16,872 bases of DNA from positions 1-16,872 of the forward strand of contig NQJD01000044.1 in the NCBI GenBank assembly GCA_004284765.1. The letters run 5' to 3'. Below are positions 3,462-16,872 of this stretch, piece after piece. The DNA comes from Candidatus Electronema aureum. Its GTDB lineage: Bacteria; Desulfobacterota; Desulfobulbia; Desulfobulbales; Desulfobulbaceae. The notes beneath the pieces were generated by a model. It did not search any database, was not told the origin of the DNA, and worked only from the letters and a program-made list of their open reading frames with translations. Each line of letters opens with the position of its first letter. The first letter of the stretch is position 1. The translations under genes were made by a program, and so were the position numbers.

Positions 3462-4337
3462 TCACTGCACTGCTGTTTTCAGTTCTGGATTAATCAGCTT
3501 TGCAATAATTGAAAGCGTGTTAGCAAAAGTAGCTGGTGAAGGACTACAGACTAAATCAGGGCTGATCACGTGTACCTGTTTATTCTGTACTGCGCTGACA
3601 AAGGGAAAACGTTGCCATTTTTCTTTCTCCTGTCGGGCAATGCCAGTCTCGCTACCCATCATGGCAATAAGAATAACATCTGGGTTCCGCTCAAGAACTT
3701 TTTCAAAACTTGTTGCCCCAGCTGTCTGATCCTCAAGCACATTTATTCCACCACTCAGAGCTATATAATCCTGAGTAAAAGAATCTTTTGCCGCACCAAA
3801 GAGCGGAGTAGCTCCGATTTGCAAAAAAACGTTACGGCGGGGCAGTGAAGCACTTTGAGCCGTAATCGCCTTCACCTTGCTTTTTGCCTGTCGGACTATC
3901 TCCTCAGCTCGCTGTTCTAATCCCAGCAATTTACCGATTTCAAGAAATTGGTTACATATCTCCGCAAAGGAAGCGGGCTGACGGAATTGCACAACCTTCA
4001 TGCCCAGCTTGCGCAGCTTCTCTATCTGCGGTGGTGAGGTCAAGCCTGTAGCCAAGATCAGATCAGGATGCAGACTTAGTATTTTTTCAACTGAGAACTG
4101 CATGACTGAACCGATCTTCGCCTTTTCTTTTGCCGCTGCCGGGCGAACACAATAACTCGTCGTGCCGACTAAGTGTTCACCCGCGCCGAGGAGAAAGACA
4201 TTTTCGGTGTTCATTGGACCGAGCGAGACAATCCGCTGCGGAAATGGCGCATTGCTGTCTTCTGCTACCGAACTATGAGGTGATAGAAGATGGCAAGACA
4301 GCAGCATAAGAACAGCGGCAAAAAGAAAATATCTCAT
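3462..4337 (-). CDS. ABC-type periplasmic substrate-binding protein, cobalamin/Fe-chelate class (BtuF-like)
   Basis: 291-aa ORF with signal peptide MRYFLFAAVLMLLSCHLL. The RIVSLGPMNTENVFLLGAGEHLVGTTSYC opening and the ...DVILIAMMG... block fit the class III (Peripla_BP_2-type) binding-protein pattern. The start lies 3 nt after the receptor stop, so it belongs to the same riboswitch-controlled operon. Confidence 0.78.
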   Translation of the reverse strand: MRYFLFAAVLMLLSCHLLSPHSSVAEDSNAPFPQRIVSLGPMNTENVFLLGAGEHLVGTTSYCVRPAAAKEKAKIGSVMQFSVEKILSLHPDLILATGLTSPPQIEKLRKLGMKVVQFRQPASFAEICNQFLEIGKLLGLEQRAEEIVRQAKSKVKAITAQSASLPRRNVFLQIGATPLFGAAKDSFTQDYIALSGGINVLEDQTAGATSFEKVLERNPDVILIAMMGSETGIARQEKEKWQRFPFVSAVQNKQVHVISPDLVCSPSPATFANTLSIIAKLINPELKTAVQ

Positions 4338-6380: not shown

Positions 6381-6695
6381 ATGCCCTTGTTTATCCGCAG
6401 ATACAGCGTGAGAATCTCTTATCCACGAAGATTCTCGCAGCAGAAGCCGTTCGTTACCATAGTTATAGCAACGCACTTTTCTACCCAGCGCAGACACTGC
6501 TGCGCTCGTTTTCAGGCAGGTCTTCTGACTTCTCTGCCCGTTCAACGGCCTTCCCGCCTATATTCTACAGACAGTGGCACACAAGGTTGAACAAGTTCCC
6601 TACTGCAAACAGCAAGGACAGAGTCACAGCGGCGGGCCCGTTCCGGTTTCGCACCGGATTCCCTTTTCATCCGCTTGCGCGGAACCTGAAAACAA
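6381..6695 (-). promoter_or_regulatory. Cobalamin (B12) riboswitch aptamer plus linker
   Basis: Minus-strand reading: ggttcc..gcgg atgAAAAGGGAAtCCGGTGcGAAAcCGGaaCGGgCCCGCCGCTGTga ... GCCACTGt...GGCGGGAAGGCc ... AGTCAGAAGACCTGCC. The last block is the B12 box, at 6515-6530. These are the conserved core blocks of the cobalamin riboswitch family. Confidence 0.88.
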
Positions 6696-6699
6696 TCGC

Positions 6700-6727
6700 A
6701 CTATACCAAAGATTGATGCAGTGTCAA
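6700..6727 (-). promoter_or_regulatory. Sigma70-type promoter driving the riboswitch-btuB operon
   Basis: On the minus strand, TTGACA (6727-6722), a 16-nt spacer and TATAGT (6705-6700). The riboswitch begins a few nt downstream. Confidence 0.7.
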
Positions 6728-6780: not shown

Positions 6781-7158
6781 TTACCGCCCAAAACCCCATG
6801 AAAAAGAAGCCTTCAGCCAATCGCCACCACCAGCTCGAACACCTGCGAACATGGTTTCAGCCATACCTGTTGAACCCATGATTCTGGCCACCTCAATCAT
6901 TAATTCAGCATCTGCGATCAAACGCTCTACCTCCTCACCGGGGTAGCCTGCCCAATATTTTAAATCATGCTTGAAGCAGGCTGGATACAAGTCAAAGCCT
7001 TGCCATTTATCGAACCAGAATGAGCAGCCATCAGACTTGAATGGCTTTGGCGGAGGATTCTTTTCAATCTTAGCCAACAGCTCATGTAGATGAAAATATC
7101 TGCACAGTTCTCTTATCTGTGCTAAGGGAACTACAGTTCCTGCCTTTGGAATATTCAT
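6781..7158 (-). CDS. Leaderless phospholipase-A2-like protein (prokaryotic/group XIV PLA2 or DUF1353-type His-Asp motif)
   Basis: 125-aa ORF. KSDGCSFWFDKWQGFDLYPACFKHDLKYW aligns by eye with the Streptomyces secreted PLA2 block STDLCTQAPDNPFGFPFNTACARHDFGYRNY (recalled from memory). Both share D.C(S/T), GF, AC..HD..Y, and later R(L)I.(D/A) and (A/G)V(K/R)..G. There is no signal peptide and no SD. The start lies 20 nt after the metallophosphoesterase stop. Confidence 0.6.
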   Translation of the reverse strand: MNIPKAGTVVPLAQIRELCRYFHLHELLAKIEKNPPPKPFKSDGCSFWFDKWQGFDLYPACFKHDLKYWAGYPGEEVERLIADAELMIEVARIMGSTGMAETMFAGVRAGGGDWLKASFSWGFGR

Positions 7159-7178
7159 AGCATAATATTGATATTTTT

Positions 7179-7985
7179 CTATGAAATACTAAAATTAGTT
7201 ATAGCATTATGCTGTAAATCAATTACAGGCACAACGAGCTTATCTGCATAATTAGGACGTGGCTCTGTTGTGGAGCCAGAGGCGAATATAACATCAATTC
7301 CGTACTCTTTTTCCCTATTCCCGTCATCTCCATTGAAACGTTTTTCAACATGCTTATGACCAAACAAGACACACTTTACTCGTGATGCACCGCTACTGCC
7401 TTTTTGTTTGATAATACTCTTGAAAGCGTCATCGTCTCTCAGTTGAAGAAAGTTATTGTAGAAAAAAGGATGATGATGTAGTGCTACAATAGCACGTTTG
7501 CCTGTACTGTCAAGATGATATAGGATGTCCTCCAAGGTTTTAAGCTGCTCCGCGCCTATCTCTCCCTGTGCACCCCATGTGTGATTATTCTGCATTTCAG
7601 AGAGCATTGAATCAAGCAGCACGATCGGATAGGTCGTATTGGGATCACAGTATGGATAGGTCAAATGGACATTATCTACTATATATTCCTTAAATCGGTA
7701 AATGCATTTATCTTTTTGAACTATGCCCGAAAAACCGTAGTCATGATTTCCTGGCACAGAAAAAACTTTTAGGTCTCCTGCGTTGAGCTTGTTAATCTGC
7801 ACCTGTGCATCCTGATATTCCTTTGAACGTCCGTTGTGAACAATATCACCTGTAATGATAACATAATCAGCTTGATGCAGATTTTTCTTATTGAGTATCC
7901 AGTTTACAATGGATGAAAAATGCTGCTCTCTAATATTGGTTGCATCTTTACCAACGTGAATATCAGACAGATGGATAATCCTCAT
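7179..7985 (-). CDS. Calcineurin-like metallophosphoesterase (CpdA/Icc-like motif set)
   Basis: 268-aa ORF with GGAGA 7 nt upstream of the ATG. All five MPE motifs occur in order: LSDIHVG, GDIVHNG, GNHD, ALHHHP, GHKH. No signal peptide. The gene is AT-rich. Confidence 0.88.
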   Translation of the reverse strand: MRIIHLSDIHVGKDATNIREQHFSSIVNWILNKKNLHQADYVIITGDIVHNGRSKEYQDAQVQINKLNAGDLKVFSVPGNHDYGFSGIVQKDKCIYRFKEYIVDNVHLTYPYCDPNTTYPIVLLDSMLSEMQNNHTWGAQGEIGAEQLKTLEDILYHLDSTGKRAIVALHHHPFFYNNFLQLRDDDAFKSIIKQKGSSGASRVKCVLFGHKHVEKRFNGDDGNREKEYGIDVIFASGSTTEPRPNYADKLVVPVIDLQHNAITNFSIS

Positions 7986-8178
7986 AATGTTCTCTCCAAC
8001 GTAGAATTAAGAAGCAAAGAGTTACGTCAACCGTATATCAAACACATCAACTAACCTACCTGAATACCCATTCCGTACCAGTCACAGTCACACCGGTGGC
8101 CCGACACGATGCAGCGATCCGGCTCCCGGAGATGGTGGGCTGGGAGCCGGTGGAGAGAGGAATGGAAATACATTTACT

Positions 8179-8511
8179 TTATATCTTGGTAGCTACCTTG
8201 GTGAGTAGGCCGATTACTTTAGTCAGATTGTTGATTACTTTGATGAAGTTCTCCATCTTTTTCATCTCATCCTGTAGCTCTTTGACTGCACCCTTAAGCT
8301 CTGGAGTATATTTATCGAACTCCTCTGCTATTACCTTAAGGATATTATAGTTTAGCTGAATTCTATATGTCATGAATTCAACAATTTTATCGCTCCACAC
8401 TGCCTTTTCTTTCTTGCTTCGCTTCTGGAGCCAAATATGAAAGTCATTTGACAAGAGGAGATCACTCTCAATCTTCTGTACTATGTCAATCAACTGATCT
8501 TGATTGTTCAT
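8179..8511 (-). CDS. Hypothetical small helical protein (110 aa), translationally coupled to upstream lipoprotein gene
   Basis: The AGGAGGA SD overlaps the TAA stop of the lipoprotein gene, with a 12-nt gap between the ORFs. Charged, heptad-like composition (KELQDEMKKMENFIKVINNLTKVIGLL). No signal peptide, TM segment or motif that I recognise. Confidence 0.6.
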   Translation of the reverse strand: MNNQDQLIDIVQKIESDLLLSNDFHIWLQKRSKKEKAVWSDKIVEFMTYRIQLNYNILKVIAEEFDKYTPELKGAVKELQDEMKKMENFIKVINNLTKVIGLLTKVATKI

Positions 8512-8523
8512 TCTATATCCTCC

Positions 8524-9393
8524 TTATGGTTTAACTGCATGAGCAGTAGCAAGAATATGTTTAATCTCGACCACAAGCGCATGAATACTACTTTGTGCAT
8601 CGTTGCCTGCCAGCAGCTTTTCAAAAATTAAACGCATTTTTTTAGATGCCTCTATAGCAGGTTTGATATCATTCACTGTTGACTTGAGCTGTATAGCCGC
8701 ACGACGTTTGGCAACCCAGTCTTCTTGCGTTGATAGAGGTTTGTCGCTCAAGAGAGGTTGCTTCACTAACAGAATCTCCTTCAACTCAGCTTCAGTTGTC
8801 AAAGCATGTGTAATCTGTCTATCCAATGTTTTTAGCAATAGCTCATGAATCTGTAGCTGTGTTCTAATAAGCTCCTGACGTTTTTCAAACTCTGCCCGCA
8901 ATACTGCTTTAATCCGGGTGTTGACAACAACTTTTGCCAGCTGCGGTAGCGTATTGACCACGTCTGGCGATGACACCTTTAGTTCTGTTGACAGTTTGTT
9001 CATCCCCGTAACCAGATTATTAATTGCAGTTTTCGTCTGGTCAGGTGCATCTGATGTTGCCAGCAACTCAAGCTGCGCAAAGTAATCAGCAAGCAATTTT
9101 GCATTGAACCTGAGGTGTTGAATGGTTGCTAATAGTTTGGCCTCTTCTTTGGTTAACGTATCATATTTTTCTGCACTCACCACGCCTGTGATGCCTTTGA
9201 CCTGCACCAAGCTCCATGAAGTTGAATCAATCTGAGCTTGCTCGGCGGTAACAAGTACCTTATCTACAGCTTTTGCATACTCTGAACCAGCTTGGGAAAA
9301 ATCTGCGTACTCGCTTTTTGGGTGAATAGCACATCCACTCAGTAGCAATAGACTGGCAACCGGGATCAGCATTGTTCTCTTTGTTAGTTTCAT
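8524..9393 (-). CDS. Predicted lipoprotein, all-alpha / coiled-coil-rich, unknown family
   Basis: 289-aa ORF with AAGGAGGA 7 nt upstream of the ATG. The signal peptide carries a lipobox: MKLTKRTMLIPVASLLLLSG|C. The remainder is helix-prone, rich in Leu/Lys/Glu/Gln/Thr, with no catalytic motif recognised. Confidence 0.75.
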   Translation of the reverse strand: MKLTKRTMLIPVASLLLLSGCAIHPKSEYADFSQAGSEYAKAVDKVLVTAEQAQIDSTSWSLVQVKGITGVVSAEKYDTLTKEEAKLLATIQHLRFNAKLLADYFAQLELLATSDAPDQTKTAINNLVTGMNKLSTELKVSSPDVVNTLPQLAKVVVNTRIKAVLRAEFEKRQELIRTQLQIHELLLKTLDRQITHALTTEAELKEILLVKQPLLSDKPLSTQEDWVAKRRAAIQLKSTVNDIKPAIEASKKMRLIFEKLLAGNDAQSSIHALVVEIKHILATAHAVKP

Positions 9394-9703: not shown

Positions 9704-10123
9704 TCAATCAAGTAGAGCTACCACCTTTTGGTTAAGCGTTGCTACCACCTGTGGGATTTTAGCTGGCTCGCATTCTGCTGTCCGCTCAAGCATGTTGCCC
9801 CATTGTCTCAGCATTTCGCTGTCTATTTTCCTGATGTCGTTGCTTTTACTCCACTCGCGACCAATCTTAGCACCCAGCTCTTCAAGATTTCTTTGGAGAT
9901 CACTTTTTAGTTCTACAGGAGCCTTTGCCAAAATTGTCGATGTGATATCCTTCCAGCCACGAGCATATAAGGTACCTTGCTGGAAGGTATCAAACCACGC
10001 CCGTTCTTGGGCTGAAAGCTGCTCTCTGCCCTGCCGCTGTCCTCCCGCAGCCTGCGGCGGCAGCACAGACAACATGCCCAGTTGAACAAGGGCAACCGCA
10101 TAAAAGATATAGTTGACGCGCAT
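9704..10123 (-). CDS. Hypothetical secreted/periplasmic protein (139 aa)
   Basis: Has its own consensus promoter and terminator. N-terminal signal-like segment MRVNYIFYAVALVQLGMLSVLPPQAA, followed by a helical, charged body. No family recognised. Confidence 0.65.
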   Translation of the reverse strand: MRVNYIFYAVALVQLGMLSVLPPQAAGGQRQGREQLSAQERAWFDTFQQGTLYARGWKDITSTILAKAPVELKSDLQRNLEELGAKIGREWSKSNDIRKIDSEMLRQWGNMLERTAECEPAKIPQVVATLNQKVVALLD

Positions 10124-10257: not shown

Positions 10258-11262
10258 TCAAACGATGGCTATCAGGACGAGGAACGTTCCGATGAAAAGC
10301 AGCAGACAAAGTAGGGATGCGGCCAGAACTAAGCGACAGACAAGGAGGATATGCTGCTTTGTAGGAAGGTGAAGTGGATCGCCGATCAGAGGTTTACTCA
10401 CAATCCTACCAAAATAGAGCGACTCTCCGCCAAGCTGGATACCCAATGCACCAGCAGCAGCAGCTTCTGGCCAGCCAGAGTTAGGACTGGCGTGCTGCTG
10501 TCGGTCACGAATAAGGATACGCCACGTGTTCTTCAAGCTACCACCGTAGATCGGCGCAGCAAGAACGAGCGCAAGCCCTGAGATTCGGGCTGGAAGAAGA
10601 TTGGCCCAATCATCGAGCCGGGCCGCGCAGCAGCCGAAGTGCAGGTAGCGTTCGTTCTTGTAGCCGAACATGGAATCCATCGTGCTGACCGCCTTGTAGA
10701 GCATAGCTGCTAAGACGGCACAAACAGCGGGCCAGCTTCCTCCGGCAGGCAAGGCAACGACAGCTCCAACAGTCGCCCAGAACAGCGGGGCAATAATGCC
10801 GTCAGACATGTTCTCTGCCACGCTCTCCACACAAGCACGAATCACCGCAGGCTTGTTCAATTGATCGGTGTCTCGACCCACGATCAAGGCAACCTGCTTT
10901 CGGGCTGCTTCGATGCTTTCGTCTAAAGCGGCATGAACCTGCATAGCATGGCGAAGCAAATCACGGGCTGCTATCGTAGTATAGAGCAGAAAGGCGGTTC
11001 CGGCTAAGAACAGCGGCTGGGAACATTGGGCAACCAAGAACAACAGCGTGGCGCAGCTACAGCCGGTAAAGAGCAAGACCAGCAGCACAGTCAGGCTGCC
11101 ACTGTTCCGCTCACTCAAGGGCAAGCTGCGGGTGAAGCTCTCCATTTTGGCTGCAAACCAGCCGATAATTCGCACCGGATGTGGGAACCAGCGCGGATCA
11201 CCGAAGAACAGATCAAGGATACAGGCTGCCAGCAGCGTATAGATAAAGGACATGTTCTTCAT
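10258..11262 (-). CDS. cbiB: Adenosylcobinamide-phosphate synthase CbiB/CobD (membrane protein)
   Basis: 334-aa polytopic ORF. The N-terminal ACILDLFFGDPRWFPHPVRIIGW carries the CobD/CbiB hallmark (D.P...PHPV...G). Later blocks are RDTD.L, ESVAEN.SDGIIAPLFW and HASPNSGWPEAAAAGALGIQLGG. Confidence 0.9.
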   Translation of the reverse strand: MKNMSFIYTLLAACILDLFFGDPRWFPHPVRIIGWFAAKMESFTRSLPLSERNSGSLTVLLVLLFTGCSCATLLFLVAQCSQPLFLAGTAFLLYTTIAARDLLRHAMQVHAALDESIEAARKQVALIVGRDTDQLNKPAVIRACVESVAENMSDGIIAPLFWATVGAVVALPAGGSWPAVCAVLAAMLYKAVSTMDSMFGYKNERYLHFGCCAARLDDWANLLPARISGLALVLAAPIYGGSLKNTWRILIRDRQQHASPNSGWPEAAAAGALGIQLGGESLYFGRIVSKPLIGDPLHLPTKQHILLVCRLVLAASLLCLLLFIGTFLVLIAIV

Positions 11263-11267
11263 CCCAC

Positions 11268-13679
11268 CTACCTTCTCTTCCGCTTCTGCCGTGCCAGCAC
11301 TTCCTTGAAGAAGCCATGCACGTTGAAGGTGATGCCGAGAAGACTTGGCTTCAACTCAAAAAGGTCGTTCATCATCTCCAGCCAACTCGCCTCATCGCTC
11401 CCCTGCTTGTCTATCTTCTGCACCAACCCATCCAGCTCATCTCTGTGCTTCGGCTGCACCAGACCAAGCAGCTCATGCACACTGTATTTCTTCTTTGAGC
11501 CAATGGGAATAAAGATGTCCGAACCAGCCTCCGCGAGGTCGAGCAGGTTCTCATAGTCTGCGCTGCCATGCTGGTCATCCGGCATCGGCACGCGCTCGCT
11601 GACGGTGAGCTTCTCAAAGCCGCTGTTAATATCGGCCAGCGTGTAGCGGAGATAATGCAGATACTCCCTGCGCTGCTCTCTATTCGCCCAGATGTTGATG
11701 CGCCGCGCCTCTATATCTGCCTTAACCAAAGCCTGCGCCCCGCTGCGCTGATCCTCCAGCAGCACGCCGGTGCGCCAGCAGGTTGCCGCCTTGATGTCCC
11801 TATGCACCTTGACCATGAAGCGGGGAAAGACTGACGGCGGCAGGAAGTCGGGGTAATGCAGGGCGAAACGGAGCGAGCCGCTCTGCTTGAAGGATAACTT
11901 CGGCTCGCTGACCGGCAGAAGCTGCGGGATGAGCACCGCCTCCTTGCCGACCGGGTAGCACAGCTCGAACTTCTCCATCAGGCCCATGATATATGGGTGC
12001 GTGTCGGGCGGGTAGGAATGCTTTTTCTCCCCCCTGAGCGGCAGGATTTCACCCAAGCACTTCAAGCTAAGGAGGCCCTTTCTGTCCGCCATCTTCTCAG
12101 CAGTGATGATCTTATAGACCGCCTCTGTGACCCAGATCGGGTCCAGCACGTGCATGGCATCGAGGATGAACTCCTTGAAATGCACGGCCACGCCGAGATC
12201 ATGTAGGAAGTCCACCAGCACCTCGCAGCTCTGCGCCTCGGTGATGCCCGCCTCTTTGCAGATGCCTTTGTACTCCTCCGCGCTGATGTAGGGTCTGTCT
12301 AACTGCTCCAGCCGCTGCTTGACCGCAAACCAGCTGCCGGGCCAGACAGTGCCAATCATCTCCACCTTGTCCAGCTCCGTCAGCAATGCCTCTTTGAACT
12401 GGGCCACACCCGTGCTGCTCTTGCAGGAGATGCGGAAGAAGTCGCGGATGCCGGGGTATTTCTCCAGCAGGAAAGGCCGGTTGACATCAAACGAGGGGTT
12501 GCTATCCATCTTGTTGAGGACCACCAGCACAGGCGAGTCGCCGCCAAATGCCTCGATGTGCCGCAGCCAGTATTCCATCCGCTCGTCCTTGCGGCCATCA
12601 AGCACGAGGACATACAGGCTGCGCTTGGAGAGGAAGAACTGGTGCGTGGCGTGCTGTATCTCTTGGCCGCCAAAGTCCCAGATATTGATCCTGATCTTCC
12701 GCCCGCCGACCTCCTGCTCCCAGCCTTGGATGTTGATGCCGTGCGTGGTATCCTCGTGCTGGTCAAACGCCTGGCCGAGGAGCTGCTTGACCAGCGAGGT
12801 CTTGCCTGCCGCGCCGTCACCAACGAGGAGAATCTTCACCTCGTTGAGAGGCTGGTCTTCTGGTTGGAGGGAGGCGAAATACTGGCGGATGGCTTGTTTA
12901 CCCTTTGAGGCGACCTCCAGCGGAGGGGAAATGAGGGGGTTATCGCTGAGGCTAAATACAGTCAGACGGGTGAGCTGGCAGATTTCAGGTGGAAGAGTGA
13001 TGAGCTGATTATTGTTTAGGTATAGACTCATCAGGCTAGTAAGTTGACTAATTTCAGGCGGGAGGTCTGTGAGCTGGTTATAGCTAAGTTCAAGTCGCCT
13101 CAGATTAGTGAGCTGGAATAGCTCAGAAGGTAAGGTGGCAAACCGGTTGTATCTTAGGTCAAGTTTAGTCAGGTTGGCAAGTTGGCAGATTTCGGGCGGG
13201 AGGTCTGCGAGCTGGTTGTAACTCAGGTCAAGCCTCCTTAGATTCGTAAGCTGGAATAGCTCAGAAGGTAGGGTTGTGAACTGATTCCCGCCAAGGTCAA
13301 TATCTGTCAGATTAATGAGCTGGCAGAGTTCTGGTAGCAGTGTGATGGGGTTATTAGCCCGAAGGCTAATTTTTTTCAGCTTCCTCAACTGGCATATTTC
13401 AGACGGTAAGGTGGCAAGCTGGTTGCCGCTGAGGTTAAGCTCAGTCAGGTTAGTGAGCTGGCAGAGTTCTATAGGCAGGGAGGTGAGCTGGTTACCGCTG
13501 AGGTCAAGCCGCCTTAGATTAGTGAGCTGGAATAGCTCAAAAGGCAAGGTTGTGAGCTGATCGTGACCGAGGTAAAATTCAGTCTCCCCGCTTGCCTTTG
13601 CCTTCTCTATCCTCTTCAGCAACCATTCATTCGTCATCGCCTGCGCACCTATGTTGTTTGTGGGGTAGGGGCACGACAT
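11268..13679 (-). CDS. ROCO-family GTPase: N-terminal leucine-rich repeats, Roc (Ras-of-complex) GTPase, COR domain
   Basis: 803-aa ORF. Residues about 38-250 form roughly 9-10 LRRs of 23 aa (L..L..L.LS.NQL..LP.EI.QL). The Roc motifs are VKILLVGDGAAGKTSL (G1), WDFGGQE (G3) and LNKMD (G4). A COR-like region of about 300 aa follows. The C-terminus is polybasic (ARQKRKRR). An alternative start is Met15 at 13637, because ATG 13679 lies inside a 28-bp palindrome. Both candidates have SD-like AGG(G/T)G upstream. Confidence 0.85.
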   Translation of the reverse strand: MSCPYPTNNIGAQAMTNEWLLKRIEKAKASGETEFYLGHDQLTTLPFELFQLTNLRRLDLSGNQLTSLPIELCQLTNLTELNLSGNQLATLPSEICQLRKLKKISLRANNPITLLPELCQLINLTDIDLGGNQFTTLPSELFQLTNLRRLDLSYNQLADLPPEICQLANLTKLDLRYNRFATLPSELFQLTNLRRLELSYNQLTDLPPEISQLTSLMSLYLNNNQLITLPPEICQLTRLTVFSLSDNPLISPPLEVASKGKQAIRQYFASLQPEDQPLNEVKILLVGDGAAGKTSLVKQLLGQAFDQHEDTTHGINIQGWEQEVGGRKIRINIWDFGGQEIQHATHQFFLSKRSLYVLVLDGRKDERMEYWLRHIEAFGGDSPVLVVLNKMDSNPSFDVNRPFLLEKYPGIRDFFRISCKSSTGVAQFKEALLTELDKVEMIGTVWPGSWFAVKQRLEQLDRPYISAEEYKGICKEAGITEAQSCEVLVDFLHDLGVAVHFKEFILDAMHVLDPIWVTEAVYKIITAEKMADRKGLLSLKCLGEILPLRGEKKHSYPPDTHPYIMGLMEKFELCYPVGKEAVLIPQLLPVSEPKLSFKQSGSLRFALHYPDFLPPSVFPRFMVKVHRDIKAATCWRTGVLLEDQRSGAQALVKADIEARRINIWANREQRREYLHYLRYTLADINSGFEKLTVSERVPMPDDQHGSADYENLLDLAEAGSDIFIPIGSKKKYSVHELLGLVQPKHRDELDGLVQKIDKQGSDEASWLEMMNDLFELKPSLLGITFNVHGFFKEVLARQKRKRR
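12930..13568 (-). repeat. 69-bp-periodic coding repeats (LRR units), including a ~138-bp tandem duplication
   Basis: Near-identical DNA blocks ttagatt(a/c)gt(g/a)agctggaatagctca(g/a)aagg occur at about 13100-13140, 13236-13278 and 13510-13558. The two-LRR module 13005-13142 is closely similar to 13143-13280 (TLPSELFQLTNLRRL(D/E)LSYNQL(A/T)DLPPEI). Confidence 0.8.
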
Positions 13680-13692
13680 GTCGTGCCCCTAC
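13665..13692. repeat. Perfect 28-bp palindrome
   Basis: gtaggggcacgaca|tgtcgtgcccctac is exactly self-complementary and GC-rich. It overlaps the longest possible ROCO start codon. No T-tract follows on either strand. Confidence 0.85.
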
Positions 13693-13895: not shown

Positions 13896-14585
13896 TCAAA
13901 GCAAACTGACCACCGCCAGCATCCGCTCCGCCACCTCGTCTGCTGTCAGCTCAGAGGCATCTATCAGCACCGCGTCCTCAGCCATGCGCAGCGGGGCGAT
14001 GGTGCGTTCGCGGTCGTTGCGGTCACGCTCGATGATCTGGGCGAGCAGCTCCGCTTCATCCGGCACGGCCTGCCCCTTGGCGCGGAGCTGCCCAACTCGC
14101 CGTCGGCACCGCTCTTCAGGCGGCGCGTCCAAGTAGAACTTCCACGCCGCAGCCGGGAAAACCACCGTGCCGGTGTCACGGCCTTCAGCGACGATCTCCC
14201 CTGCCCTGCCCATCTTCTGCTGCAAGGCAGTCAGCGTTGATCTCACTGTCGGCAAGGCGGAGACCTGCGAGGCCATCATTCCCGCTTCCGGGCTGCGGAT
14301 GGCCGCGCTGATGTCCTCGTCATGCAGGAACACCCGCACATCATCTCCCTCGTGCAATGGCGGCAGCAGACGGATATCCAGCCGCGCAAGCAGGACGTTG
14401 AGCGCAGCTGAATCAGCCAGTTCGATGCCCGCCTGCCTGCATTGAAAACCGACCGCCCGGTACATCGCCCCAGTGTCCAAATACGTCCAGCCAAGGGCCG
14501 CAGCCACCTTGCGGCTGACCGTGGATTTGCCCACACCGGACGGGCCGTCAATCGTGACCACCTTCAGCCGCATCGCGCCGCTCAT
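13896..14585 (-). CDS. cmk: Cytidylate kinase
   Basis: IDGPSGVGKSTVSRKVAAALGWTYLDTGAMYRAV is the P-loop plus CMP-binding opening typical of Cmk. I chose the start at ATG 14585 (MSGAMRLKVVTIDGP...), which has GGGGA 7 nt upstream. The track ORF extends to 14666, but that would add about 27 non-conserved residues. Confidence 0.88.
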   Translation of the reverse strand: MSGAMRLKVVTIDGPSGVGKSTVSRKVAAALGWTYLDTGAMYRAVGFQCRQAGIELADSAALNVLLARLDIRLLPPLHEGDDVRVFLHDEDISAAIRSPEAGMMASQVSALPTVRSTLTALQQKMGRAGEIVAEGRDTGTVVFPAAAWKFYLDAPPEERCRRRVGQLRAKGQAVPDEAELLAQIIERDRNDRERTIAPLRMAEDAVLIDASELTADEVAERMLAVVSLL

Positions 14586-14669
14586 AACCATTTCCCCTTC
14601 CATAAGAGCCTCTGCATAGTCTGCTGGTATGCTACTCGGCATACGGGTTGATATGCCCCTCGGCATGTT

Positions 14670-16319
14670 TTACAGCTGATGGGCGAGGGCCGCTGCGATG
14701 AAGGCCCGGAAGAGCGGATGCGGCAGCATGGGCTTGGATTTGAACTCAGGGTGGAACTGGCAGCCGAGGAACCACGGATGCCCGCCAAGTTCGACGATCT
14801 CAACCAGACTGCCGTCCGGCGAGGAACCGCTTATGACCATCCCTGCCTGCTCCAGACGTTCACGGTAGAGCGTGTTGAACTCATAGCGATGTCTGTGCCG
14901 CTCGCTGATCTCGCTCTGCGCGTAGGCGGCATGGGCGAGGCTGTTTGCTTGCAGCACGCATGGGTAGGCACCAAGGCGCAATGTCCCTCCCATGTCGGAG
15001 CGCTCATCCCTTGTTTCCGTCCTGCCGCTGCGGAAGTCAAACCACTCCTTCATCAGGTAGATGACTGGGTGGGCAGTGGCCGGGTTCAGCTCCACCGAAT
15101 CCGCTCCCTCAAGCCCAGCAACATTGCGGGCGAATTCCACCACCGCCAGCTGCATCCCCAGGCAGATGCCAAAGAACGGCACCTTGCTTTCTCTGGCGTG
15201 CTGAATGGCCCTGATCTTCCCTTCCGTGCCTCGGCTGCCAAAGCCTCCGGGCACCAGTATGCCGTCGCAGTCTGCCAGCTCATTCACAGAGCCGCCGCCT
15301 TCCAAGTCATCTGCCGCGATATAGCGCAGATGCACCTTGGCATCGCAGGCCAAGCCGCCGTGAATCAGGGCCTCATGCAGGCTTTTGTACGCCTCTTTCA
15401 GCTCCACATATTTGCCGGTGATGCCTATGGTCACGCTGCGCGACGGACTCTTGCTCCGCCTGACCAGATCCTGCCAAGGAGCGATGTTTGGTGCACCTGT
15501 CCAGATGCCCAACTTCTGGAGGATGCGGTGGTCTGCTCCCTCCTCATGCAGGCGCAAAGGCAGCTCGTAGATGTTGTCCACATCAACGGCTGTGAAGACC
15601 GCTTCCGCCTCGATGTTGCAGAAGAGGGCAATCTTTTTCTTCACCCCTGCGTCCAAGGGTGTTTCGGTGCGGCAAATAAGGATGTCGGGCTGAATGCCTG
15701 CGGCCAGCAGCTCTTTAACAGAGTGTTGTGTTGGCTTGGTCTTTATCTCGCCGGCGGTCTTAATGAACGGAACTAATGTCAGGTGAATGAACAGTGAGTA
15801 GTCACGCCCCAAGTCGCCTCGCAGCTGGCGGATGGCCTCGATGAAGGGCAGGCCCTCAATGTCTCCGACCGTGCCGCCTATCTCCACTATTGCCACGTCC
15901 GCCATCCCGTCTAACTGCATGACGGAACGTTTGATCTCATCGGTGATATGCGGAATCATCTGCACAGTGCCGCCAAGGTACTCGCCGCGCCGCTCCTTCA
16001 TGATCACCGAATAATATATCCGGCCAGATGTGTAGTTGTTGATCCGCCCCATGACCGCCTTGGTATAGCGTTCATAGTGGCCCATATCGAGGTCAGTTTC
16101 CGCGCCGTCGTCCGTTACATAGACCTCACCATGCTGGAAGGGATTCATCGTTCCAGGGTCAACATTGATGTAGGGATCAAGCTTTTGGAAGGTAACGGTC
16201 ATACCTCTGCTTTCCAGCAGAGCACCGATGGAGGCTGCGGCCAGCCCCTTACCGAGGGAGGAGAGCACGCCTCCGGTGATGAAGATGAATTTTGTCTTTC
16301 TACTGGCTTGGATGTCCAT
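14670..16319 (-). CDS. pyrG: CTP synthase
   Basis: 549-aa ORF. N-terminal [17 protein letters not shown] (synthetase domain). The C-terminal glutamine amidotransferase domain has GICLGMQ (nucleophile Cys) and ...HRHRYE. GAGGA lies 5 nt upstream of the ATG. Confidence 0.95.
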
Positions 16320-16693: not shown

Positions 16694-16872
16694 AGACGAT
16701 TTTGTTATTGCTGTCTTTCTGCTTGTCTGTGAACAATACGGTGTCATCAGGCAGCAATGTCGGCTGCGGCGGGGCGGATTTAACCCTGCCTTAACAGATG
16801 AAGAAGTCATCACTATGGAAATCTGCGGCGAGTATTTCAAACTCGAATGTGATAAGGACATCTTCGCATACT
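16686..16872 (+). mobile_element. 5' portion of a DDE transposase gene, IS982-like; runs off the window
   Basis: This frame is absent from the ORF track because it has no stop. It reads MDRDDFVIAVFLLVCEQYGVIRQQCRLRRGGFNPALTDEEVITMEICGEYFKLECDKDIFAY... The block (S/T)D.E(V/I)I(T/A)M..(C/V)GE....(D/E).(D/E)..(I/W)F.(Y/F) is the N-terminal signature I associate with IS982-family transposases. AAGGAG lies 7 nt upstream. The IS end and inverted repeat could not be located. Confidence 0.6.

Follow-up and report, generated by a model that had tools for sequence, protein, structure and literature searches.

A stand-alone LRR-Roc-COR gene of a cable bacterium and the variable family to which it belongs

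The Roco gene, its domains and its leader

The window analysed here is the whole stretch of 16,872 nucleotides of contig NQJD01000044.1 from Candidatus Electronema aureum (assembly GCA_004284765.1). On its minus strand, between the genes cmk and cbiB, lies an open reading frame (ORF) that almost certainly encodes a stand-alone ROCO protein of the CtRoco type, composed of a solenoid of leucine-rich repeats (LRRs), a Roc GTPase domain, a COR-A/COR-B region and a short conserved tail. The ORF, its leader and its domains are arranged as follows.

11268-13679, minus strand: Roco ORF, 803 amino acids (aa) as first called
13665-13692, minus strand: leader hairpin with a 12-bp stem and a 4-nt loop, ending 27 nt upstream of the probable start
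13623-13637, minus strand: probable start at Met15 (MTNEW...), with a conserved AGGTG...CAGGCG leader ahead of it
12897-13586, minus strand: LRR domain, residues 32-261, ten 23-residue repeats behind an N-terminal cap helix (Pfam LRR_4, LRR_8, LRR_14)
12360-12845, minus strand: Roc GTPase domain, residues ~279-440 (Pfam match to residues 282-392, 7e-32)
11916-12341, minus strand: COR-A, residues 447-588 (PF16095, 1.6e-37, 129 bits; identical coordinates in the whole-genome scan)
11466-11876, minus strand: COR-B, residues 602-738 (PF25497, 1.1e-26, 93.8 bits)
11271-11465, minus strand: subfamily-specific tail, residues 739-803 (65 residues), with two low-confidence helices and a final amphipathic helix that has a basic end

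The protein has both features that define the ROCO family in sequence, a Roc domain with intact motifs and a COR domain directly C-terminal to it, and its membership is thereby established. Every domain listed above is matched beyond its curated Pfam cut-off. The Roc family (PF08477) scores 110.5 bits against a cut-off of 27, and the motifs G1 to G5 are all intact: G1 GDGAAGKT at residues 287-294, the switch-I element DTTHG at 310-314, G3 DFGGQ at 335-339, G4 NKMD at 389-392 and G5 SCK at 418-420. An earlier description made from the letters alone, hereafter the sequence-only reading, had already recognized G1, G3 and G4 as intact and had noted a region of COR length behind them. It would have given up the assignment if this region did not resemble COR; the region is matched by Pfam as COR-A and COR-B, contiguous with Roc in one polypeptide, and COR-B, which in CtRoco is the dimerization part of COR, aligns with the COR of CtRoco (3dpt) at a Foldseek template modelling score (TM) of 0.84. 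At the N-terminus, Pfam LRR families cover residues ~40-250, the repeat register gives ten repeats with a 23-residue period and the AlphaFold model contains ten beta-strands at the same period. Downstream of COR-B, no match is found in Pfam, NCBIfam or PADLOC and no effector domain is present, in agreement with the initial description of about ten N-terminal LRRs without a kinase or other output domain; the ARQKRKRR end that it had pointed out is likewise part of the protein. No family of the STAND type (NB-ARC or NACHT) occurs among the Pfam matches. The GC content is 0.49 in the LRRs versus 0.59 in Roc-COR.

The AlphaFold2 model, computed from an alignment of 94 sequences, has a mean predicted local distance difference test (pLDDT) value of 86.7; in it, the ten LRR strands lead into a Ras-like fold and then into COR. 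Its best Foldseek matches are 6hlu, 3dpu, 4wnr and 8r4b, with the CtRoco LRR-Roc-COR crystal structure ranking first, and a phmmer search against the PDB sequences agrees on the kinship with CtRoco and MbRoco2. CtRoco of Chlorobaculum (Chlorobium) tepidum (6hlu, 3dpu, 3dpt, 8r4b-d) has a like order of LRR, Roc, COR-A and COR-B, is devoid of a kinase or other enzyme and is matched at a phmmer E-value of 1e-133 in addition to the structural matches. It is, however, only 31-35% identical, contains more LRRs and ends in a C-terminal region of its own, ~150 residues long and without relation to the 65-residue tail described here. The closest solved relative is MbRoco2 of Methanosarcina barkeri (4wnr), which is 57% identical over Roc and COR-A (TM 0.90, E-value 3e-129) but is archaeal and has been solved only as a fragment, RocCOR without COR-B. 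The human proteins MASL1/MFHAS1, LRRK1 and LRRK2 share the LRR-Roc-COR core, and the structures of LRRK1 and LRRK2 match the fold significantly; the human proteins differ in their identity of ~20%, their ankyrin, armadillo, kinase or WD40 additions and their place in eukaryotic trafficking. MASL1 is a human ROCO protein without a kinase. The RocCOR tandem, and CtRoco as a bacterial homologue of LRRK2, are described in two papers (PMC6337361, PMC7135905). By itself, the gene is ordinary, its layout being that of CtRoco, the standard bacterial model for LRRK2.

The start codon requires a revision. The ATG at 13679, from which the ORF was first read, lies within a perfect palindrome of 28 nt (13665-13692), in the part that forms the loop. 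Paralogues and orthologues start at the equivalent of Met15, the paralogues with MTNEELL. The 27 nt between the hairpin and the Met15 ATG show DNA conservation among paralogues as well as between species and include a Shine-Dalgarno-like AGGTG. The NCBI record gives 803 aa and an independent gene call for the identical sequence gives 789 aa (P0005). Based on the paralogue and orthologue starts, the conserved leader and this independent call, the start is placed at 13637, and the true coding sequence (CDS) is probably 11268-13637, encoding 789 aa. A search of Rfam detected no riboswitch or other known RNA in the leader, the sole match in the window being a cobalamin riboswitch at 6498-6704.

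The hairpin itself is present in both the minimum free energy and the centroid RNA folds. Its outer stems are conserved (GTAGGGGC ... GCCCCTAC), whereas the inner stem varies yet stays complementary. Over 13 copies, 97% of the cells are paired and six of the 12 pairs have changed on both sides. The covariation score was reached by none of 500 shuffles, and slid registers fall to 41-56% paired. Most Roco paralogues and orthologues carry the hairpin ~27 nt before the start codon, and three Roco genes carry it ~180 nt upstream, with a repeat-rich insert between hairpin and start. The source genome (G000) contains ~10 copies, four of them in Roco leaders and the remainder at the 3' ends of unrelated genes; the positions other than the one discussed here include C1:70053-70080, C5:44208-44235, C35:18198-18225, C6:22027-22054, C29:16473-16500 and 16805-16832, C47:8564-8591 and C8:95903-95930. 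Copies were found in seven of nine genomes of the genus. Since they also lie at the 3' ends of unrelated genes, the hairpin is, judged by its sequence copies, a dispersed element resembling repetitive extragenic palindromes (REP-like) and not a Roco-specific operator. Upstream of the hairpin, a repeated GGGTACCCTTGAG-like motif may represent a candidate promoter.

A multicopy family of cable bacteria

The sequence-only reading took the gene for a sole copy, but it belongs to a family specific to cable bacteria that has six intact members in this genome. In the Ca. Electronema aureum assembly (2.76 Mb, 73 contigs), the intact COR-A genes, which include one tandem pair, are mutually 50-62% identical and occur in addition to LRR-only and Roc-only ORFs that represent fragments. 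One decayed copy (C12:6844-8364, L034) illustrates the loss of domains: its LRR ORF stops at the LRR/Roc linker, and in the next ORF the DFLH of COR-A is fused to the DFLP of COR-B, so that Roc and most of COR-A are deleted while the tail is kept. Short ORFs composed of COR-B plus tail, akin to this copy, also occur in the genomes G004 and G001.

Counted over related and hence not independent genomes, COR-A genes are present in 6/6 genomes of the genus and in 14/14 genomes of the second genus, Ca. Electrothrix, with two to seven copies each, as opposed to single copies in 2/78 genomes from the 13 other genera of the bacterial family. This distribution probably reflects a single gain and an expansion at the base of the cable bacteria. 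In a set of nine genomes of the genus, the copy number ranges from 1 to 8 and is at least two where completeness is at least 80%. Among the best 120 homologues, the named ones belong to Ca. Electronema or Electrothrix, with the exception of a metagenome-assembled genome labelled Planctomycetes (P0085) and two 'Desulfobulbus sp.' records. One locus of G005 (L015, C94:21600-38750) harbours four intact Roco genes within 18 kb, two of which are directly in tandem. In the cable-bacterium genome literature that was searched, LRR, GTPase or Roc proteins are not mentioned, and nothing joining cable bacteria with Roco was found.

The C-terminal tail is kept in all paralogues and displays a conserved G-I/V-x-hydrophobic-N-L ... 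F-K motif with a near-invariant phenylalanine in the last helix, which is modelled at a pLDDT of ~71-81 compared to ~50 for the other tail residues. A profile of the tail searched against 1.84 billion representatives yielded 67 matches, and all ten that were checked are Roc-COR proteins or fragments thereof; within the source genome the profile matches Roco copies only, and a word-based search returned cable-bacterium proteins only. No PDB sequence match was obtained (the best, Lon, is not significant at an E-value of 0.025), nor was there a usable match in the ESM Atlas. A shared adaptor of the EAD type was rejected, as the profile matches only Roc-COR proteins among those checked. The tail was also considered as a strong amphipathic membrane anchor; a hydrophobic-moment scan was unremarkable and this idea is retained only as a possibility. 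Membrane or partner binding by the tail is a guess. Two relatives differ at the opposite end of the protein. In P0167, which is 31% identical, an N-terminal TIR domain replaces the LRRs and the tail motif is retained, and in P0039 an AAA-type N-terminus (AAA_16/AAA_22) precedes a Roc-COR-tail portion that is 68% identical, again with the tail. Because both variants keep the tail, Roc-COR-tail is, at the level of sequence, the constant unit of the family and the N-terminus an exchangeable module.

The three best inter-genome matches were used to measure divergence by domain. Identity amounts to 83-86% in Roc, 35-57% in the LRRs and 43-49% in the tail, and synonymous divergence (dS) rises from 0.3-0.5 in Roc and COR-A, with values of up to 0.77 in COR-B, to 0.9-2.9 in the LRRs and the tail. 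The ratio of nonsynonymous to synonymous divergence (dN/dS) is 0.13-0.5 in all domains including the LRRs. This pattern fits a mosaic evolution under purifying selection, although misaligned LRRs may exaggerate it in part. At domain-level resolution, positive selection on the LRRs was considered and rejected, given a domain-wide dN/dS below 0.5. In comparisons between G000 and G005, housekeeping genes show a dS of 1.0-2.1, whereas three Roco pairs show 0.28, 0.67 and 0.69. In one pair the LRR domains are identical, and a tandem Roco pair of G005 is collinear with the C58 pair of the source genome at a dS of 0.28. At the Roco locus, a copy is lacking from the nearest relatives of G000 (pyrG dS 0.14), whose best match lies at a dS of 0.67. 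Since Roco dS lies below housekeeping dS, these values suggest that Roco genes have been exchanged between species. Together with the absence of a copy at the locus in the closest genomes and the occurrence of pseudogenes, they indicate birth-and-death turnover and interspecies exchange, as for accessory genes. The sequence-only reading had indeed called the protein apparently accessory and had named as contrary evidence a universally conserved gene with fixed housekeeping synteny and slowly evolving LRRs. The findings were otherwise: the flanks are unlinked in relatives, with no fixed housekeeping synteny, and divergence is greatest in the LRRs, whose number varies from ~3 to ~14 across the family while the Roc-COR core is strongly conserved.

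The position between cmk and cbiB

The neighbouring features on the same strand are listed below; pyrG lies further upstream, likewise in the orientation of the Roco gene.

13896-14666, minus strand: cmk, cytidylate kinase (Pfam/NCBIfam), upstream of the Roco gene
11263-11270, minus strand: TAG stop of the Roco gene (11268-11270) and 5-nt spacer to the cbiB ATG at 11262
10258-11262, minus strand: cbiB, adenosylcobinamide-phosphate synthase (CobD_Cbib, 2e-100; TIGR00380), downstream and outside the Roco system

The distance of 5 nt between the Roco stop codon and the cbiB ATG on the same strand was reported correctly from the outset. A Shine-Dalgarno-like sequence of cbiB, AGGTAGGTGGG, overlaps the end of the Roco gene, and between the two genes no terminator-like or promoter-like site was found. 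With no space left for a separate cbiB promoter, cbiB is plausibly read through from the Roco transcript, which would be incidental. Homology to the two closest genomes (93% at the nucleotide level) ends at 13906-13907, ~10 nt inside the 3' end of cmk, and homology on the cbiB side ends at 11235-11253, at the start of cbiB. The Roco gene and its leader (2.6 kb) precisely fill the interval between two blocks that other genomes do not link. None of the relatives searched links cmk with cbiB, and no Roco gene adjoins either of them elsewhere; in five relatives whose cbiB loci were compared, cbiB has other upstream neighbours, and the flanks of both cmk and cbiB differ in every genome, with synteny generally scrambled. 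The position of the Roco gene is, on this comparative evidence, a lineage-specific rearrangement unique to its own genome.

The neighbourhoods of the six paralogues and three fragments, compared by all-against-all BLAST, share no recurrent partner gene, only Roco genes themselves. The neighbours of the paralogues are housekeeping genes (dnaE, cobD-cobQ, purA-like, FadL, TerC, NamZ). Upstream of a Roco paralogue, a dnaE gene with an intein of the LAGLIDADG-domain type followed by a HicB-like ORF was seen both in G000 (C35:18841-23694, L032) and in G003 (C10; L014:11047-15879), and this is the only conserved interspecies Roco position observed.

A functional tie between Roco and cobalamin salvage, such as would exist if the protein were a sensor or regulator expressed together with cbiB, is very improbable despite several adjacencies that would seem to favour it. 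Besides the 5-nt spacing on one strand, a fusion of a cobD-like aminotransferase with cobQ (cobyric acid synthase) adjoins a Roco paralogue of the source genome tail to tail (C1:72063-74636, L030:9064-11637, convergent). The same fusion in G004 (C12:7416-9974) has a Roco gene directly upstream in tandem. In addition, a cobalamin riboswitch (6498-6704, minus strand, 100 bits) lies 4.5 kb from the Roco locus, ahead of a gene for a TonB-dependent receptor (to ~4341) and a Peripla_BP_2 BtuF-like gene (3462-4337). As the riboswitch occupies 6498-6704, the TTG start listed for the receptor at 6545 is too far upstream. Against such a tie, the riboswitch governs a separate transcription unit, cmk and cbiB are never linked in relatives and homology breaks exactly at the start of cbiB. 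In the 8/8 other genomes of the genus, the Roco genes are on a different contig from cbiB or, in the closed genome G002, ~0.9 Mb away. Adjacencies to cobalamin genes number three among ~45 Roco genes, close to a rough chance estimate of ~1, and one event may account for two of them. The cobalamin link was therefore rejected as chance. The survey of cbiB linkage that the sequence-only reading had proposed thus speaks against the tie to cobalamin it had raised, the adjacency being unique to one genome and located at a synteny breakpoint. A different explanation of this breakpoint, a metagenomic mis-join within the conserved Roco core that brought together an ORF and neighbours never found in one cell, has a chance close to nil. 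It could draw on the fragmentation of the genome into 73 contigs and on the contrast between pyrG and cmk, which are 94-99% identical to G003 and G006, and cbiB, which is 68-79% identical to anything. However, apart from a REP-like palindrome of 28-32 nt at the 5' border of the gene (13659-13692), which recurs on C35 and C8, other contigs share no exact repeat of mis-join length, and in long matches the CDS is no more than 74% identical to them. Moreover, divergence shifts at domain borders in all family members and not at a single junction, and the identical 803-aa protein occurs at NCBI on a 2.94-Mb contig, with the 789-aa call on three further contigs. Mis-assembly was rejected on the basis of the repeat scan and these independent contigs.

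Several observations concern the flanks. The blocks 10258-11262 and 13896-16319 have different nearest relatives, and cbiB together with an ORF of 139 aa (orf139; 9704-10123, minus strand, no family match) reaches only 58-79% identity to the other members of the genus. In G003 no cbiB was found, and the cbiB block may itself be a recent import. orf139 accompanies cbiB in G005, G007 and G004 (58-69% identity) and is preceded by a near-consensus sigma-70-like promoter (10207-10179). Between orf139/cbiB and the riboswitch, a segment of low GC content (0.42; 6781-9393) may be an inserted islet. It contains a metallophosphoesterase gene (7179-7985), an ORF of 289 aa and two small ORFs, these ORFs being without family matches; the metallophosphoesterase has weak PADLOC matches to 'effector endonuclease', confined to its N-terminus.

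Possible mechanism and role

Structural work on CtRoco has revealed a nucleotide-dependent cycle between dimer and monomer. By analogy, the protein described here likely acts as a GTP-dependent switch. In the GDP-bound or empty state, COR-B would hold the dimer together with the LRR domain folded back on Roc-COR, and GTP binding would lead to opening and monomerization. The variable LRRs would bind a protein ligand, and, since no enzymatic domain is present, output would proceed through protein-protein contact or through membrane contact of the constant Roc-COR-tail part. For the cellular role, our leading guess, tentative and drawn from comparison with related architectures, is intracellular surveillance or a conflict sensor, whose effector would act in trans or be supplied by the tail. 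Taken as a whole, the explanation that combines a ROCO switch, a conflict sensor and an incidental locus is the best available, with a probability that we place just short of even.

The comparison behind this guess is with predicted conflict proteins of the LRR-AP-GTPase-COR type, which occur as many paralogues in filamentous bacteria and whose C-terminal effector or EAD domains, of at least 24 kinds, differ between paralogues (Kaur, Iyer, Burroughs and Aravind, eLife 2021; PMC8195603). Variable N-terminal LRRs, an AP-GTPase (Roc) with COR and several paralogues per genome are features in common. In contrast, no effector (TIR, caspase, GT4 and others) or EAD follows COR-B here, the six paralogues share one tail and it is the N-terminus that is swapped in rare relatives (TIR, AAA). 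As such an effector is missing, the Roco gene is not filed among these counter-invader systems. The sequence-only reading had drawn a parallel between the combination of LRRs with a P-loop switch and NLR/STAND receptors. This holds for the architecture only, as the switch is a Ras-like Roc GTPase in place of a STAND NTPase. Neither an effector, a PADLOC match nor a conserved partner came to light.

Several points weigh against the conflict-sensor explanation and the proposed switch. The mechanism of the switch is transferred from CtRoco, which shares only 31-35% identity with this protein. Neither an effector domain nor a recognisable EAD was found in the protein, and PADLOC-DB 2.0 contains no family that matches the 789-aa protein at E <= 0.001. 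No recurrent neighbour accompanies the paralogues, and their flanking genes are housekeeping genes; a defence island was accordingly considered and rejected. Selection is purifying in every domain including the LRRs, with positive selection not seen at the domain level. Finally, all paralogues share one tail, unlike the differing effectors of the proteins described by Kaur et al. (2021). Part of this evidence suits a role in filament biology, in which the proteins would act as scaffolds under GTP control and serve signalling between cells, division of labour or organisation of the envelope and cytoskeleton in the multicellular filament, with LRRs that bind endogenous partners. The family tracks the filamentous lifestyle, being found in 20/20 cable-bacterium genomes and nearly absent from non-cable relatives, its genes reside amid housekeeping genes, all domains are under purifying selection and no effector domain is present. 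Eukaryotic Roco proteins act in cytoskeletal and trafficking pathways (PMC3128523). Nevertheless, the copy number varies from 1 to 8 over the nine genomes of the genus, positions vary between genomes, pseudogenes and fragments occur, the closest relatives have no positional orthologue and synonymous divergence under the genome background suggests interspecies exchange. As variable copy number and position, decay and exchange are features of accessory genes, a core developmental module is not favoured, and we regard a filament role as unlikely. A bolder extension of the conflict-sensor explanation, and a distinctly less probable one than the filament role, would see in the horizontally exchanged LRR-Roc-COR repertoire an NLR-like immune system without classical effectors, in which GTP-driven opening would release the conserved tail as output for membrane attack or partner recruitment. 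If true, this would introduce an effector principle that is new to ROCO proteins and give a minimal bacterial member its first assigned function.

Cable bacteria are not yet genetically tractable. What the analysis adds goes modestly beyond the textbook: a ROCO family that marks a clade (20/20 versus 2/78 genomes), signs of its movement between species and a constant tail that survives swaps of the N-terminus. A lineage with two to seven effector-less copies and a candidate output peptide is a sensible place to seek the role of bacterial ROCO proteins.

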